IMG/VR virus record: IMGVR_UViG_2713896774_000001
Span: 1 to 29,255 of that record
Strand: one strand, 5' to 3'
DNA: 29,255 nucleotides
Source: a virus
Taxonomy: Duplodnaviria > Heunggongvirae > Uroviricota > Caudoviricetes
The position numbers were made by a program, and so were the translations under genes. Shown here in pieces: positions 5,000 through 8,829 of this stretch; the stretch's first letter is position 1, and every line of letters begins with the position of its first letter. The notes under the pieces are model-generated. The model saw nothing but the letters and a program-made list of their open reading frames with translations, was not told where the DNA came from and searched no databases.

Positions 5000-5190
5000 A
5001 CGCCACAATTCAAACGATACCAGAGCTTCTTATCCAGACACGAGGCAATCAGACCGAAGTGGCAAGGATGCTTTCCTGCGCAAGAGGAACAGTGCTCAAG
5101 TACAACCGAGACAGCAAAGGCGAGCGTCACGTAATAGTTAACGGCGTCCTGATGGTCAAACAGGGCAAGAGGGGAAGACGATGGGCATAA
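4996..5190 (+). CDS. ninH: NinH
   Basis: Motif GNQTEVARMLSCARGTVLKY...HVIVNGVLMV matches lambda NinH (GNQTEVARRLKCSRGTVRKY...AIVNDVLMV). Confidence 0.8.
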   Translation: MNATIQTIPELLIQTRGNQTEVARMLSCARGTVLKYNRDSKGERHVIVNGVLMVKQGKRGRRWA

Positions 5191-5669
5191 GAGAACTAAA
5201 CCTCACCAAAGAGCAGCACGAGTGGCTGAATGGCTGGCTTGAACTGTGGGGCGCATAGGTTTATTCAGGTCGTCTGGAAAAGCGCATGAGCAGCGTAATA
5301 GCGAAGTTCATGGAGAGCGTAGAGCCGGGAAGAGTTATGACAAGGCCAATGTGCAATGATGATGATGGAATGTTGATTTCTCAGGTCGTCGATTCCGTCA
5401 TGTACATTGACAAGAAAGCCTTTGGCATCCTCCTCAGCTACTACGCCCATGGATCTTCCAAGCACGCCATTGCATCTTACTATCATCGCGTCGCAAGACC
5501 TCGCAAGATGTTATGCCGGGGCGGAGGGCGCATTCAAAAACCATCGCTCGCAACCTGTCGTCGGGAAGTTGACGAAATCCTCAATGCCTCGTTGTTTATG
5601 ATTTACCCGGTTCTGGATAGTGCGTTTAAAAACCGGAAACGTGTAGAGAAAATTAAACATGTAGCATAG
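5181..5669 (+). pseudogene. Q: Late-gene antiterminator Q (QuuD/Q82-like) interrupted by an in-frame TAG at 5256..5258; an uninterrupted ORF exists only from the internal Met at 5286
   Basis: ATG at 5181 with GGGGAAG ribosome-binding site. The frame reads MGIRELNLTKEQHEWLNGWLELWGA-TAG-VYSGRLEKRMSS...TRPMCNDDDGMLI... Resembles DLP12 QuuD (..ERWGAWAANN...SRPQCCDDDAMII..) from memory, where the stop position holds a Trp (TGG). Sits between ninH and the lysis genes. Confidence 0.6.
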
Positions 5670-5675
5670 AACGTG

Positions 5676-5704
5676 TTGACATCATTGAGCAAATGAGCAA
5701 CACT
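5676..5704 (+). promoter_or_regulatory. Candidate late promoter (PR'-like)
   Basis: TTGACA at 5676..5681 directly after the Q stop, but no good -10 hexamer at 16-19 nt spacing (AACACT or CACTAT). Position is appropriate for a Q-modified promoter. Confidence 0.3.
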
Positions 5705-5713
5705 ATTCGCATA

Positions 5714-5758
5714 AGCTGCCGTTAGTGACTCTTAAGTTGCAACGGTGGCTTTTTTTAT
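5714..5758 (+). terminator. Intrinsic terminator, tR'-like (target of Q antitermination)
   Basis: Inverted repeat AGCTGCCGTT (5714..5723) and AACGGTGGCT (5741..5750), with two G-U pairs, followed by TTTTTTTAT. The sequence downstream (TTTGCACAACAGGTAAGAGCATTGAG...) matches the lambda tR'-to-S region as I recall it. Confidence 0.55.
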
Positions 5759-6140
5759 TTGCACAACAGGTAAGAGCATTGAGTCGATAATCGTGAAGAG
5801 TCGGCGCGCCTGGTTAGCCAGTGCTCTTTCCGTTGTGCTGAATTAAGCGAATACCGGAAGCAGAACCGGATCACCAAATGCGTACAGGCGTCATCGCCGC
5901 CCAGCAATAGCACAACCCAAACTGAGCCGTAGCCTCTGGCTATCCTGAATTCATCAGTGATAGTTACGCTGCGGCATTCTACGCATGACCTTCGTGAAAG
6001 CGGGGGGCAAGAGGCTGCGCTAACAACCTCCTGCCGTTTTGCCCGTGCATATCGGTCACGAACAAATCTGATTACTAAACACAGTAGCCTGGATTTGTTC
6101 TATCAGTAACCGACCATATTCCTAATTAAATAGAGCAAAT

Positions 6141-6154
6141 CCCCTTATTGGGGG
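6141..6154 (+). promoter_or_regulatory. Small hairpin upstream of the holin dual start (sdi-like structure)
   Basis: CCCC-TTATTG-GGGG immediately 5' of GGGGGTAAGAC-ATG-AAG-ATG. In lambda a comparable structure sets the S107/S105 start choice. Confidence 0.35.
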
Positions 6155-6160
6155 TAAGAC

Positions 6161-6484
6161 ATGAAGATGCCAGAAAAAAATGACCTGTTAGCCGCCATTC
6201 TCGCGGCAAAGGAACAAGGCATCGGGGCAATCCTTGCGTTTGCAATGGCGTACCTTCGCGGCAGATATAATGGCGGTGCGTTTACAAAAACAGTAATCGA
6301 CGCAACGATGTGCGCCATTATCGCCTGGTTCATTCGTGACCTTCTCGACTTCGCCGGACTAAGTAGCAATCTCGCTTATATAACGAGCGTGTTCATCGGC
6401 TACATCGGTACTGACTCGATTGGTTCGCTTATCAAACGCTTCGCTGCTAAAAAAGCCGGAGTAGAAGATGGTGGAAATCAATAA
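6161..6484 (+). CDS. S: Holin S (lambda-type class I holin, dual-start MKM)
   Basis: 107-aa translation is near-identical to lambda S ([63 protein letters not shown]...). Confidence 0.95.
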
Positions 6485-6944
6485 TCAACGTAAGGCGTTC
6501 CTCGATATGCTGGCGTGGTCAGAGGGAACAGATAACGGACGACAGAAAACCAGAAATCATGGTTATGACGTCATTGTAGGTGGAGAGCTATTCACTGATT
6601 ACTCCGATCACCCTCGCAAACTTGTCACGCTAAACCCCAAACTCAAATCAACAGCAGCCGGACGTTACCAGCTTCTTTCCCGTTGGTGGGATGCTTACCG
6701 TAAGCAGCTTGGCCTGAAAGACTTCTCTCCCAAAAGCCAGGACGCTGTTGCGCTGCAGCAGATTAAGGAACGTGGCGCTTTACCGATGATTGATCGCGGT
6801 GATATCCGTCAGGCTATCGATCGTTGCAGCAATATCTGGGCGTCGTTACCTGGTGCAGGTTATGGTCAGTATGAACATAAAATCAGTGACCTGATTTCCC
6901 GGTTTAAAGAGGCTGGTGGGGTGGTAAATGAAGTTGAGCTATAA
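6468..6944 (+). CDS. R: Endolysin R (lambda-type lytic transglycosylase)
   Basis: 158-aa translation is near-identical to lambda R ([50 protein letters not shown]...); start overlaps the S end. Confidence 0.95.
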
Positions 6945-7320
6945 GCTGGTTATCGCTGCATTCTTCTTTACTGTCATCGGTTCTTTCATCTGGTCTGCCA
7001 ACCACTACTACAGCAAATATCAGCACGAAAAGAAACGTGCTGATGAGGCTGTACAAAATGCCAAATCGGCAACTGTCATTACCAATAACGTCCTGCAATC
7101 ACTGCAAATCGTCAATACAGTTCTGGAGGCTAACCAGCATGCAAAACAGCAGATCACACTGGAGTCACAGAGAACCGAGAACGATATCAAGGCTGCTGTT
7201 GCGGATGATGATTGTGCTGTTCGTTTTGTGCCTTCTGGCGCAGTTAAGCGGCTGCACGACTACGCGAACGGTCTACGTTCCAGTTCCGGTGGTTCCGTTA
7301 CCAGCCAACCTGACGGCTGA
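6928..7320 (+). CDS. Rz: Rz-like inner-membrane spanin (i-spanin), non-lambda allele
   Basis: N-terminal transmembrane segment (LVIAAFFFTVIGSFIW), then a Q/E/K-rich predicted coiled coil. Position after R and overlap with R are as in lambda, but the sequence is unlike lambda Rz. Confidence 0.7.
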   Translation: MKLSYKLVIAAFFFTVIGSFIWSANHYYSKYQHEKKRADEAVQNAKSATVITNNVLQSLQIVNTVLEANQHAKQQITLESQRTENDIKAAVADDDCAVRFVPSGAVKRLHDYANGLRSSSGGSVTSQPDG

Positions 7321-7483
7321 AACACCCCAGCCAGATTTACCCGATCCGTTTACGTGGGGAGCAAGCCTTAACCTGAATGTTGCGTTGTTGTCAGCGTTAG
7401 CACAGTGCAACAGGGATAAGGCTGATATCAGGACTTTCGAGAACAACAGGGCAGGACAAACAGATGGCACGATTAAACGTTGA
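7205..7483 (+). CDS. Rz1: Rz1-like outer-membrane lipoprotein spanin (o-spanin), starting inside Rz in the +1 frame and extending past its stop
   Basis: ATG at 7205 inside Rz. Signal peptide with lipobox (MMIVLFVLCLLAQLSG-C) and a Pro-rich mature region (VPVPVVPLPANLTAETPQPDLPDP). Confidence 0.65.
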   Translation: MMIVLFVLCLLAQLSGCTTTRTVYVPVPVVPLPANLTAETPQPDLPDPFTWGASLNLNVALLSALAQCNRDKADIRTFENNRAGQTDGTIKR

Positions 7484-7649
7484 AGTTATCCCACCAGACA
7501 GCGAGGTGCTGAACGGGATTTTTGCAGAGATTGAGCGCAAATATGCGCATCAGCCGCTGACGCCAAAAGTAATTGATGAAATGCAACGCGAAGCGACGCG
7601 CCTTGTACGGCGAATGATAACCACAAAGGTTACGTTCGTCCGGGACTGA
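7464..7649 (+). CDS. Hypothetical small protein (61 aa)
   Basis: ATG ORF overlapping the Rz1 end, followed by a hairpin (GAAGCCC..GGGCTTC, 7657..7679) without a U-tract. No family recognised. Confidence 0.4.
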   Translation: MARLNVEVIPPDSEVLNGIFAEIERKYAHQPLTPKVIDEMQREATRLVRRMITTKVTFVRD

Positions 7650-7703
7650 CATTACAGAAGCCCTTCACTGAGGGGCTTCGATAATGGAGCACTGGGATTA
7701 TTC

Positions 7704-8324
7704 ATGAACAGACCACACCCACCAGCGCATTTTACGATGCCACCTGACCCGAAGCCTTACATCAGCATAATGCCCGCCATTGACGTTGGCGAGTGGCTGA
7801 ATCAGCACATCCTGAGCGATGAGGGTGACCTCTACAACCCTGACCACCAGCATTTGCTTGAAGCGGATCTGTGCTTTCTCTGGGCGTCGAACACTTTCGA
7901 GAAGAAAGGGCGGTCCGTGCTGGGGCAGGCGGAAGAAGTGGCAATGCGGGCTGGAGGCTGGCAGAAAGCGCGGATGGAGCAGCAGATGTATGAATGGTTC
8001 GGCAGGGTGCCGCAGTTCATCATCACGCTGGCCGCCGATTACTGCTCGCAATGTTCCGATCTGGAATTCTGCGCGCTGATAGAGCACGAGCTTTATCACA
8101 TCTGCCAAGCGACAGATGAATTTGGTGCGCCGAAGTTCACGCAGGAAGGGCAGCCAAAGCTGAAGCTGCGCGGCCATGACGTGGAAGAGTTTGTGGGCGT
8201 GGTTCGCCGTTACGGTGCGAGCCGGGACGTGCAGGAAATGATTGATGCGGCGAATCAGCCAGCGGAGGTTGCTCATCTCGATATTGCCAGAGCGTGCGGG
8301 ACGTGCATGCTGCGACTGGCTTAA
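7704..8324 (+). CDS. Hypothetical protein with an HEXXH zinc-metallopeptidase-like motif (IEHELYHI)
   Basis: 206-aa ORF co-oriented with the phage operons and containing HELYH. The almost fully overlapping minus-strand ORF 7698..8393 looks like antisense noise (R/L-rich, no motif). Confidence 0.55.
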   Translation: MNRPHPPAHFTMPPDPKPYISIMPAIDVGEWLNQHILSDEGDLYNPDHQHLLEADLCFLWASNTFEKKGRSVLGQAEEVAMRAGGWQKARMEQQMYEWFGRVPQFIITLAADYCSQCSDLEFCALIEHELYHICQATDEFGAPKFTQEGQPKLKLRGHDVEEFVGVVRRYGASRDVQEMIDAANQPAEVAHLDIARACGTCMLRLA

Positions 8325-8355
8325 ATACTGGACTGTATAAGACGAATGGTGATTT

Positions 8356-8829
8356 ATGGCTGCATTAAAACCTGATGTGAAAGCCTTCATCATTCAGTCG
8401 CTTGCGTGCTATGACACGCCATCGCAGGTGGTCGAGGCTGTCCAAAAAGAATTCGGGATCAGGATCACCCGCCAGCAGGCTGAATCTCACGACCCCACGA
8501 AGGCCAGCGGTAAGACGCTCGCCAAAAAGTGGATCGAGATGTTCCACGCGACGCGCGAACGGTTCCTGACCGAAACCAGCGACATTCCGATAGCGAACAA
8601 ATCCTATCGCCTCCGCGTGCTTGACCGCATGGCAACCAAAACCGAGGGGATGAAAAACTTCTCCCTGACGGCGCAGCTTATCGAACAGGCCGCGAAAGAG
8701 GTTGGCGACGCTTACACCAATAAGCTGAAGGTTGAGAGCACTGGCAAGGATGGCGGCCCGATCAAGACCGAGACGACCAACCTCACCGCAGATCAGGCCG
8801 CAGAGATTTACCGCAAGATGATGGGGTGA
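8356..8829 (+). CDS. Putative terminase small subunit (DUF2280-like)
   Basis: 157-aa ORF immediately upstream of, and overlapping, the large terminase gene; recalled as a DUF2280-type protein commonly at the small-terminase position. Confidence 0.5.

Follow-up and report, generated by a model that had tools for sequence, protein, structure and literature searches.

The question raised by this locus is whether the joining of a lambda-like late-control and lysis region to the genes of a contractile-tailed particle is a recent event or a feature of an established genome type. The DNA concerned is a stretch of 29,255 nucleotides (nt) from the IMG/VR virus record IMGVR_UViG_2713896774_000001, which was analysed at its full length (the window). 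An IS66-family element on the minus strand and a run of 50 N are followed by one long array of genes on the plus strand, in which a lambda-like nin, Q and lysis region lies directly upstream of a virion module. The original prediction covered positions 5181-8356, i.e. from the start codon of Q to that of the small terminase gene, and described lambda-type nin, Q and lysis modules fused to a contractile-tail virion module as a recent mosaic. The observation is partly confirmed, as the sequence facts mostly hold, and the interpretation is partly supported, being right only in the sense that lambdoid genomes in general are mosaics. Comparison with related prophages and phages suggests that the window is very probably an ordinary member of a known and common lambdoid-myovirus type, in which this combination of modules is old and widespread.

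The clearest evidence is collinearity. Positions 2400-9000 of the window were aligned to eight relatives, and identity was read both in 60-nt steps and base by base; counts in Escherichia coli refer to a search of 5,426 complete genomes. Over window positions 2920-14909, up to the end of the fetched locus, the prophage of E. coli BR1220 runs collinear with the window at 93-96% identity, the sole gap (5761-5920) corresponding to tRNA genes. The same order, from cI, cro, cII and the replication genes through nin, Q, S, R, spanins, TerS, TerL, portal, sheath and baseplate, could be identified in RM12581, RM13514, E2348/69 and 873.10. The nin genes are linked to the tail genes at one place in 15 of the 30 best E. 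coli matches to window positions 1-25000. The module from TerL to portal is present in 393 of the 5,426 genomes, of which 294 cover at least 80% of it, and one IMG/VR contig matches 5990-8900 as a single 97.5% piece. The matches to lambda and to the relatives have E = 0 and lengths of hundreds to thousands of bases, far beyond chance. The original prediction had itself named a lineage carrying the entire arrangement collinearly as the sign of a conserved type. As such a lineage is represented by BR1220, RM12581/RM13514, E2348/69 and 873.10, the arrangement appears to be a conserved type rather than a recent or unusual fusion.

Several points weigh against this reading. Not one database sequence agrees with the window in all of its alleles, and the best match in E. 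coli accounts for 75% of positions 1-25000, in eight pieces. Few genomes have the joint between the phage 21-type Q sequence and the lambda-type leader without intervening tRNA genes, at least 80% of 5560-6000 being covered in 15 of 5,426, so that the exact allele mix may be recent even if the architecture is old. The terms prophage and lambdoid early region are taken from the relatives, with the immunity, replication and integration regions lying outside the window; the window begins in the IS66 element, and a lambda-like immunity, replication and integration region is present in 873.10, E2348/69 and RM12581. The single Q-dependent transcription unit discussed below is extrapolated from structural work on the Q protein of phage 21 (Q21) and from the lambda paradigm. 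Finally, the two point lesions described below, a stop codon in Q and a deletion in ninF, are each seen in a single sequence and could be sequencing errors.

The identity profile against lambda and against relatives of the structural module, proposed earlier as a check, yielded sharp and reproducible breakpoints. At the left joint (5750-5761), lambda homology begins at 5750 in the U-tract of the terminator tR', while the Q21-type sequence, 97-100% identical to BR1220, ends at 5761. Relatives that carry tRNA genes (BR1220, RM12581 and E2348/69) depart from the window at 5761 and return at 5920, and JEP4 and HK75 depart at 5782 and return at 5911. The second joint had been placed at 6944/6928, between R and Rz. 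It lies instead at 6842-6880, inside the 3' end of R, where the alignments of lambda, JEP4 and 873.10 stop at 6880; identity of R to lambda DNA falls from 94.1% (6468-6841) to 74.4% (6842-6880) and 59.4% (6881-6944). The final ~100 nt of R (one third of 100 codons) thus belong with the spanin module in their distribution, which places the joint within the gene. Likewise, the lysis-to-packaging joint is not a diffuse zone from 7483 to 8356. Homology to Citrobacter phage Omnitron and to 873.10 starts exactly at 7650 and homology to E2348/69 ends at 7686, so that the shared overlap is a 37-bp hairpin (7650-7686). Among E. coli and IMG/VR relatives, recurrent starts of homology were found at 7121 (inside Rz, just before Rz1), at 7474 (start of a 61-codon open reading frame (ORF), orf61) and at 7650. 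The mosaic description therefore stands as an evolutionary patchwork, with relatives switching on and off at sharp reproducible points, but not as a recent fusion. Pervasive exchange of modules among lambdoid phages is well documented (PMC9836094).

These breakpoints bear directly on the possibility of a one-off recombinant, in which a lambda-like siphovirus prophage would have given Q-S-R to a resident contractile-tail prophage, leaving young and strain-specific junctions. Such an origin would agree with the 94-99% DNA identity of S and R to lambda, with the match of 5783-5910 to lambda only among the compared loci, and with the lack of any complete E. coli genome covering 5181-8900 in one piece. 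However, every junction is common to independent genomes from different hosts and continents, and the joints at 6842-6880 and 7650 occur in 100 E. coli genomes, which hold the contiguous stretch from R through spanins and orf61 to the hairpin, as well as in more than 20 viral contigs. Phage records with the lambda-type S-R cassette number in the hundreds and E. coli genomes with it in the thousands, and Salmonella phage SEN34 (see below) represents an established and viable lambdoid-plus-myovirus design. The divergence among the collinear relatives (85-97%) also argues against clonal descent from a single recent event, and lambda itself would not be the donor, since identity to lambda is about 95% rather than about 100%. 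A recent recombinant is thus largely refuted by the collinear relatives and appears quite improbable.

An assembly artefact, in which two prophages of one genome would have been joined through shared repeats and the N run would reflect a scaffolding problem, is very improbable. The 50-N run at 2351-2400 does invite this explanation, as do the long near-identical stretches among lambdoid prophages that confuse assemblers. Moreover, exact-match scans of genome contigs and viral contigs gave no copy of the Q allele with the stop codon, and the scan of genome contigs gave none of the joint between the Q21-type sequence and the lambda-type leader. The N run is, however, 2.8 kb to the left of the region under study, the joints at 6842-6880 and at the hairpin recur in the finished closed genomes BR1220, RM12581 and E2348/69, and the joint at 7650 is also found in Omnitron, an induced and sequenced phage. 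The features of the window are collected in Table 1.

Table 1. Features of the 29,255-nt window, with positions, strand and the evidence for their assignment.
Feature	Positions	Strand	Evidence or remark
IS66-family insertion sequence (IS), three ORFs	42-2314	-	Pfam DDE_Tnp_IS66, TnpB_IS66, HTH_Tnp_1
IS66 transposase ORF	42-1580	-	
IS66 TnpB ORF	1629-1976	-	
IS66 HTH ORF	1973-2314	-	
Run of 50 N, gap or masked stretch	2351-2400		between IS and ninB
nin region, HK620/HK75 type	2528-5190	+	93-97% DNA matches to BR1220, 873.10 annotation
Q antiterminator gene, phage 21 type	5181-5669	+	Pfam PF06530 Phage_antitermQ; TAG at codon 26 (5256-5258)
pR' and tR' intrinsic terminator	5676-5756	+	TTGACA 5676-5681; hairpin 5713-5751; U7 5750-5756
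Lambda-type tR'-to-S leader	5750-6160	+	95.6% identity over 411 nt to lambda 44775-45185
Holin/antiholin S, lambda dual start MKM	6161-6484	+	Pfam Phage_holin_3_1; 105/107 residues as in lambda S
Endolysin R	6468-6944	+	146/158 residues as in lambda R; lambda-type to ~6841
i-spanin Rz, non-lambda allele	6928-7320	+	phrog_214 at 1.7e-42; weak DUF2570 match
o-spanin Rz1, LysC type	7205-7483	+	Pfam LysC PF23793 at 3.8e-18
61-codon ORF (orf61), travels with spanin module	7464-7649	+	phrog_12811 at 2.7e-36
37-bp hairpin	7650-7686	+	fold -21.3 kcal/mol, z = -5.8, no T-run
Putative phage metallopeptidase, HELYH (HExxH) motif	7704-8324	+	Pfam PhageMetallopep PF18894 at 2.2e-43
Small terminase (TerS), DUF2280 type, C-terminal ~30-residue tail	8356-8829	+	Pfam DUF2280 at 8.7e-50
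Virion module	8826-28830	+	Pfam, ORF-by-ORF comparison

The lambdoid late-control layout is present in the window, with a promoter and an intrinsic terminator placed immediately after Q and ahead of the late genes. The terminator tR' folds at -20.2 kcal/mol (z = -4.15), and pR' and Tr' are annotated at the aligned positions in the HK75 record; a scan of 5100-8900 with promoter and terminator consensus patterns performed no better than on shuffled sequence and missed tR'. The assignment of Q to the QuuD type could not be maintained, as identity to QuuD of DLP12 is 29% over 125 residues and only the Pfam family is common; to lambda Q there is no similarity. With codon 26 read as Trp, the Q protein is identical to phage 21 Q in all 162 residues (PDB 6JNX, 6P18). 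The reading frame of this copy is interrupted, since codon 26 is TAG in the window versus TGG in all four aligned relatives (BR1220, HK75, E2348/69 and RM12581). None of the 773 E. coli genomes that hold this stretch has an exact copy with the amber codon, the best match showing 1 mismatch in 160 nt.

With a stop at codon 26, expression of the late genes can probably not be turned on in this copy. A restart at the next in-frame ATG considered (5286, Met36) would give a product of 127 residues without helix H1. This helix lies next to the torus-forming segments of Q21 and participates in the Q-Q contact (bioRxiv 10.1101/651190), so that a protein restarted at Met36 would be expected to be inactive. 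The ninF gene (3460-3588) is also damaged, as a deletion of 1 nt near 3554 (GGAAG to GGAG), relative to lambda, BR1220 and 873.10, causes a frameshift that leaves 42 codons. Judging from the amber codon in Q, the frameshift in ninF and the IS66 element beside ninB, this prophage copy is probably crippled or inactive.

The same lesions, together with the full length of the 25 structural ORFs at 7704-27589, could be taken to indicate a domesticated remnant, tailocin-like or resembling a gene-transfer agent, of which the host keeps the virion and lysis genes while the regulatory circuit decays. We consider this extremely improbable. Head, portal and terminase genes have been kept, unlike in tailocins, and there would be no evident route to late-gene expression without Q. 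Two point lesions and one IS rather resemble a recently inactivated prophage, and the amber allele, of which none of the three scanned collections gave an exact copy, is not fixed in any sampled lineage.

For an intact copy of the conserved type preferred here, the following mechanism is proposed. The stretch very probably represents the first part of the late operon in a lambdoid myovirus prophage of SEN34-like kind, in which a lambda-style control and lysis unit (nin, Q, pR', tR', holin, endolysin and a two-part spanin) lies upstream of, and codirectional with, the packaging-head-tail module. According to structural work (bioRxiv 10.1101/651190), Q21 binds a site at pR' and loads onto the sigma-dependent paused polymerase, building a nozzle at the RNA-exit channel so that terminator hairpins cannot form. 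In an intact copy, Q21 would load onto polymerase paused just past pR' and carry it through tR' and later terminators, and transcription would then proceed as one unit through S, R, the spanins and the packaging and virion array of about 21 kb. Transcription of the whole downstream array as a unit, whatever the ancestry of its parts, would allow any lysis cassette to be combined with any virion module of the same orientation, and varied combinations of lysis cassettes and virion modules in the same orientation are indeed seen in the comparative data. The cassettes of the region are interchangeable and meet at a few recurrent joints, namely in the tR' U-tract, near the 3' end of R, midway through Rz, where orf61 starts, at the hairpin just before the first packaging-side gene and at the 3' end of TerS.

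After the leader, the lysis genes are all present in the order holin, endolysin, i-spanin and o-spanin. Window 5750-6880 aligns to lambda 44775-45905, with 98.8% DNA identity in S, and no DNA match to lambda was found to the right of 6880. The likeness of the leader, S and R to lambda had been correctly recognised (Table 1); all differences but one between R and its lambda counterpart lie after residue 134. For 5783-5910, where lambda is the only match among the compared loci, the relatives have tRNA-Asn and tRNA-Thr genes or other sequence. These tRNA genes stand in the place of window 5761-5920 in BR1220, RM12581 and E2348/69, and in E2348/69 an HNH endonuclease gene is found upstream of them; a tRNA scan of the window itself identified no tRNA genes.

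That Rz and Rz1 represent a different allele from lambda was borne out, as they are of LysB/LysC type and unrelated to the lambda pair beyond the membrane anchor, where Rz matches lambda Rz over 20 residues. The pair matches phrog_214, phrog_456 and Pfam LysC. Rz1 has a lipobox (LSGC) with its Cys codon at 7253, and its start is placed at 7139 in RefSeq (BR1220, RM12581 and E2348/69). It is encoded in a different frame from Rz, overlaps it and ends 163 nt past it, which corresponds to the overlapped LysB/LysC architecture (P2-type). The closest isolated phages in Rz/Rz1 are SfIV, SfII and SfV, with 82-84% DNA identity over 6881-7431. The neighbouring orf61, which overlaps the end of Rz1 by 20 nt, is annotated in BR1220, RM12581 and E2348/69, but is absent from SfIV, SfII and SfV despite their common spanins.

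The hairpin at the lysis-to-packaging joint is located 18-20 nt upstream of the first packaging-side gene. Exact copies are present in 53 IMG/VR contigs, and 21 IMG/VR contigs carry the window's genes on both sides of it. In phage records it is always intergenic, e.g. in the gap between Rz and TerS of vB_EcoM-689R2, with flanks that switch independently on each side. A scan for variants, in which only the hairpin flanks and the four basal pairs were fixed, identified at least 163 loci with 48 distinct variants of the upper stem and loop, all of which fold to the same hairpin. The five free pairs are paired in 97.1% of cases versus 88.9 +/- 1.3% with partners shuffled (maximum 93.3% in 2,000 shuffles), a control that ignores relatedness and has its flanks fixed by the search. 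At pair 3, a switch from C-G to A-T occurs in 11 variants. These data are suggestive rather than conclusive of a stem kept by compensatory changes.

The neighbours of the hairpin are diverse. Where at least 500 nt were available on each side (129 loci), the flanking DNA falls into 45 clusters on the left and 44 on the right, which occur in 72 combinations. Of these, 13 left clusters are paired with 2-8 right partners and 14 right clusters with 2-8 left partners, and no fewer than eight kinds of terminase set are represented on the right. A megablast search of phages with the hairpin (28-base word) gave no match, while an 11-base word retrieved 17 records. Comparison of the hairpin region with Rfam at E <= 1 gave chance-level matches only, as did a search of the whole window at gathering thresholds, and a literature search for the hairpin sequence and for lambdoid phages with DUF2280 found nothing. 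We tentatively suggest, as a possibility that is somewhat less probable than its opposite, that the hairpin is an undescribed structure-constrained cis element marking the boundary between lysis and packaging modules in many lambdoid phages. The hairpin may act in the processing or stabilisation of mRNA, may control translation of the first packaging gene, or may simply be a recombination hotspot, and it could serve as a shared linker where modules swap by homologous recombination. Its behaviour resembles that of the linker which the modular theory of phage evolution postulates. As a testable candidate for these long-postulated sequences, it is the sole item of the locus that might repay more work.

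To the right of the lysis genes the content of guanine plus cytosine (GC) steps from 0.43-0.51 to 0.53-0.59 at about 7500. The first packaging-side gene encodes the putative metallopeptidase, which has 98.5% amino acid identity to its counterparts in Omnitron and 873.10. It is co-inherited with the DUF2280 small terminase in 31 of the 53 contigs with the exact hairpin. The PHROGs database labels this family 'transposase', which looks like a misannotation. A minus-strand ORF at 7698-8393 (231 residues) was rejected as a shadow of this gene, because all annotated relatives call the plus-strand gene and because of the Pfam support of the latter.

Three unrelated bodies of the small terminase are found before closely related TerL proteins, i.e. 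DUF2280 in the window, Terminase_2 in E2348/69 and 689R2, and an unclassified body in SEN34. All three share a C-terminal tail of about 30 residues (G.DGGP..TE.TNLT.DQAAE.YRKMMG), and the DNA joint lies directly before this tail, with SEN34, vB_EcoM-689R2 and E2348/69 rejoining the window at 8740-8830. The tail is probably a segment for docking to TerL that permits exchange of the DNA-recognition part, and it would appear to let different DNA-recognition bodies dock on one large terminase.

The head genes of the virion module encode TerL, a DUF1073 portal, MuF, DUF2213, cement, DUF2184-type major capsid, DUF4054 and neck terminator proteins. The tail genes encode a DUF3383 sheath, a KPP10_Orf10-type tube, a chaperone, a tape measure protein with SLT, a Dit-like protein, a Pam3-type plug, a hub, a spike, baseplate J, DUF2612 and a tail fibre. 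The predicted families (DUF2280 TerS, DUF1073 portal, MuF, sheath, tube, baseplate J and spike) were recovered by Pfam, with matches to DUF2280, Phage_portal_3 (PF06381; DUF1073 in RefSeq), Phage_Mu_F (PF04233), DUF2213, Major_capside, DUF3383, KPP10_Orf10 and Baseplate_J. The spike has an N-domain and a GpV apex motif, and cement, plug and hub match families of E217, Pam3 and XM1. The module had been called Mu-like or otherwise non-lambda, and it is indeed a non-lambda contractile-tail module, but its likeness to Mu does not extend beyond the MuF domain: portal (PF06381), sheath (DUF3383) and tube (KPP10_Orf10) belong to families other than those of Mu. The tail of the particle would be contractile, since the DUF3383 protein is 64.5% identical to the annotated sheath of SEN34, whose tail has been seen by electron microscopy. 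All 25 ORFs at 7704-27589 are full length compared to Omnitron or 873.10. Their identity to a phage relative is 88-100%, except for three variable tail ORFs with 64-79% identity to Omnitron. The tail-fibre ORF (27571-28830) is matched by relatives only at its N-terminus (69-155 residues).

Two patches of low GC interrupt the virion module, at 24001-24565 (0.41) and 28001-29255 (0.43-0.44). The first includes an ORF of 128 codons (24179-24565) without a Pfam match, which is 97.7% identical in Omnitron and absent from 873.10, RM12581 and SEN34; it is probably a moron. The second corresponds to the variable tail-fibre end. In E. coli NEBExpress, a derivative of a B strain, a partial copy of TerL adjoins a gene annotated as anti-CBASS Acb1-family protein, and in several other genomes the portal itself carries this annotation.

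At the left end of the array, the nin genes are arranged in the order ninB, ninE, ninX, ninF, roi/KilAC antirepressor, DUF1364, rusA and ninH, and were recognised by DNA matches of 93-97% to annotated E. coli prophages, HK75, HK620 and JEP4. Identity to lambda at the protein level is 95% for NinE, 76% for NinF, 56% for NinH and 40% for NinB, and at the DNA level only ninE and part of ninF match lambda (97%). The name lambda-type is hence appropriate as far as the region is lambdoid (HK620/HK75 type), but not for lambda's own alleles. The IS66 element and the N run stand to the left of ninB, at the place where relatives have replication genes, and a matching phage sequence carries the label ISEc8 for the element. 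The segment 42-2400 marks either a scaffold gap or a place where the early region has undergone an insertion or deletion.

In comparison with known systems, lambda shares with the window the logic of Q, pR', tR' and late genes, and the leader, S and most of R at 94-99% DNA identity. Lambda Q is unrelated to that of the window, and its Rz1 is embedded in Rz, whereas the pair in the window is overlapped and unrelated. The window has no bor, no cos/Nu1/A, and none of the lambda genes for head and non-contractile tail, and most of its nin genes differ. It therefore lacks the features of the genus Lambdavirus (lambda Q, embedded Rz/Rz1, cos Nu1/A, and the lambda head and tail). In phage 21, Q is followed by the S21 pinholin and the R21 signal-arrest-release (SAR) endolysin, unlike the lambda-type S and R of the window. 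Phage 21 Q (PDB 6JNX, 6JNY, 6P18-6P1C) has 161 of 162 codons encoding the same residues, codon 26 being a stop in the window.

BR1220 shares the Q21-type Q, S, R, LysB/LysC spanins, orf61, hairpin, metallopeptidase and DUF2280 TerS. Among the other prophages, 873.10 (O18ac:H14) carries a KilA-N gene before the hairpin, and its Q is lambda-sized and its Rz lambda-type; E2348/69 (O127:H6) has a Terminase_2 small terminase after the hairpin, and RM12581, which like RM13514 is E. coli O145:H28, has tRNAs where the window has the lambda leader. Omnitron is 97.1% identical in DNA over 7650-21257 and 90.4% over 21685-27725, but its lysis cassette is another one.

That lambdoid genomes are mosaics is textbook knowledge, and the combination of such a genome with a contractile-tail particle entered the literature with SfV, earlier than with SEN34. 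Shigella phages SfV, SfII and SfIV share this concept of a lambdoid regulatory genome with a myovirus particle, as well as the spanin allele of the window, but have no match to orf61, the hairpin or the packaging genes, and their virion module is of another kind, with an HK97-like head and a Mu-like tail. The finding as originally stated thus matters little, as the architecture has already been described and the window adds one more member; the practical gain is a corrected annotation (phage 21 Q with a stop, overlapped spanins and exact breakpoints) and evidence of probable inactivity. The closest described design is SEN34, a Salmonella phage (Brunovirus) reported in 2017 to combine a lambda-like genome with Myoviridae morphology and a contractile tail seen by electron microscopy (PMC5261728). 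The new lambda cluster 'temperate 26' (Casjens and Grose, cited in PMC5261728) has SEN34 as its prototype. SEN34 differs from the window in its alleles of Q, holin, endolysin and spanins, in having no DNA match to the left of 8791 and no metallopeptidase gene before TerS, in the body of TerS, of which only the C-terminal tail is common, and in its tail proteins (51-83% identical). Its overall plan is that of the window, its lambda-like early, nin, Q and lysis genes being followed by virion genes from TerS to baseplate in the same order; by ORF-by-ORF tblastn all virion genes are collinear at 51-97% amino acid identity, and TerL, portal, MuF, DUF2213 and major capsid proteins are 94-97% identical.

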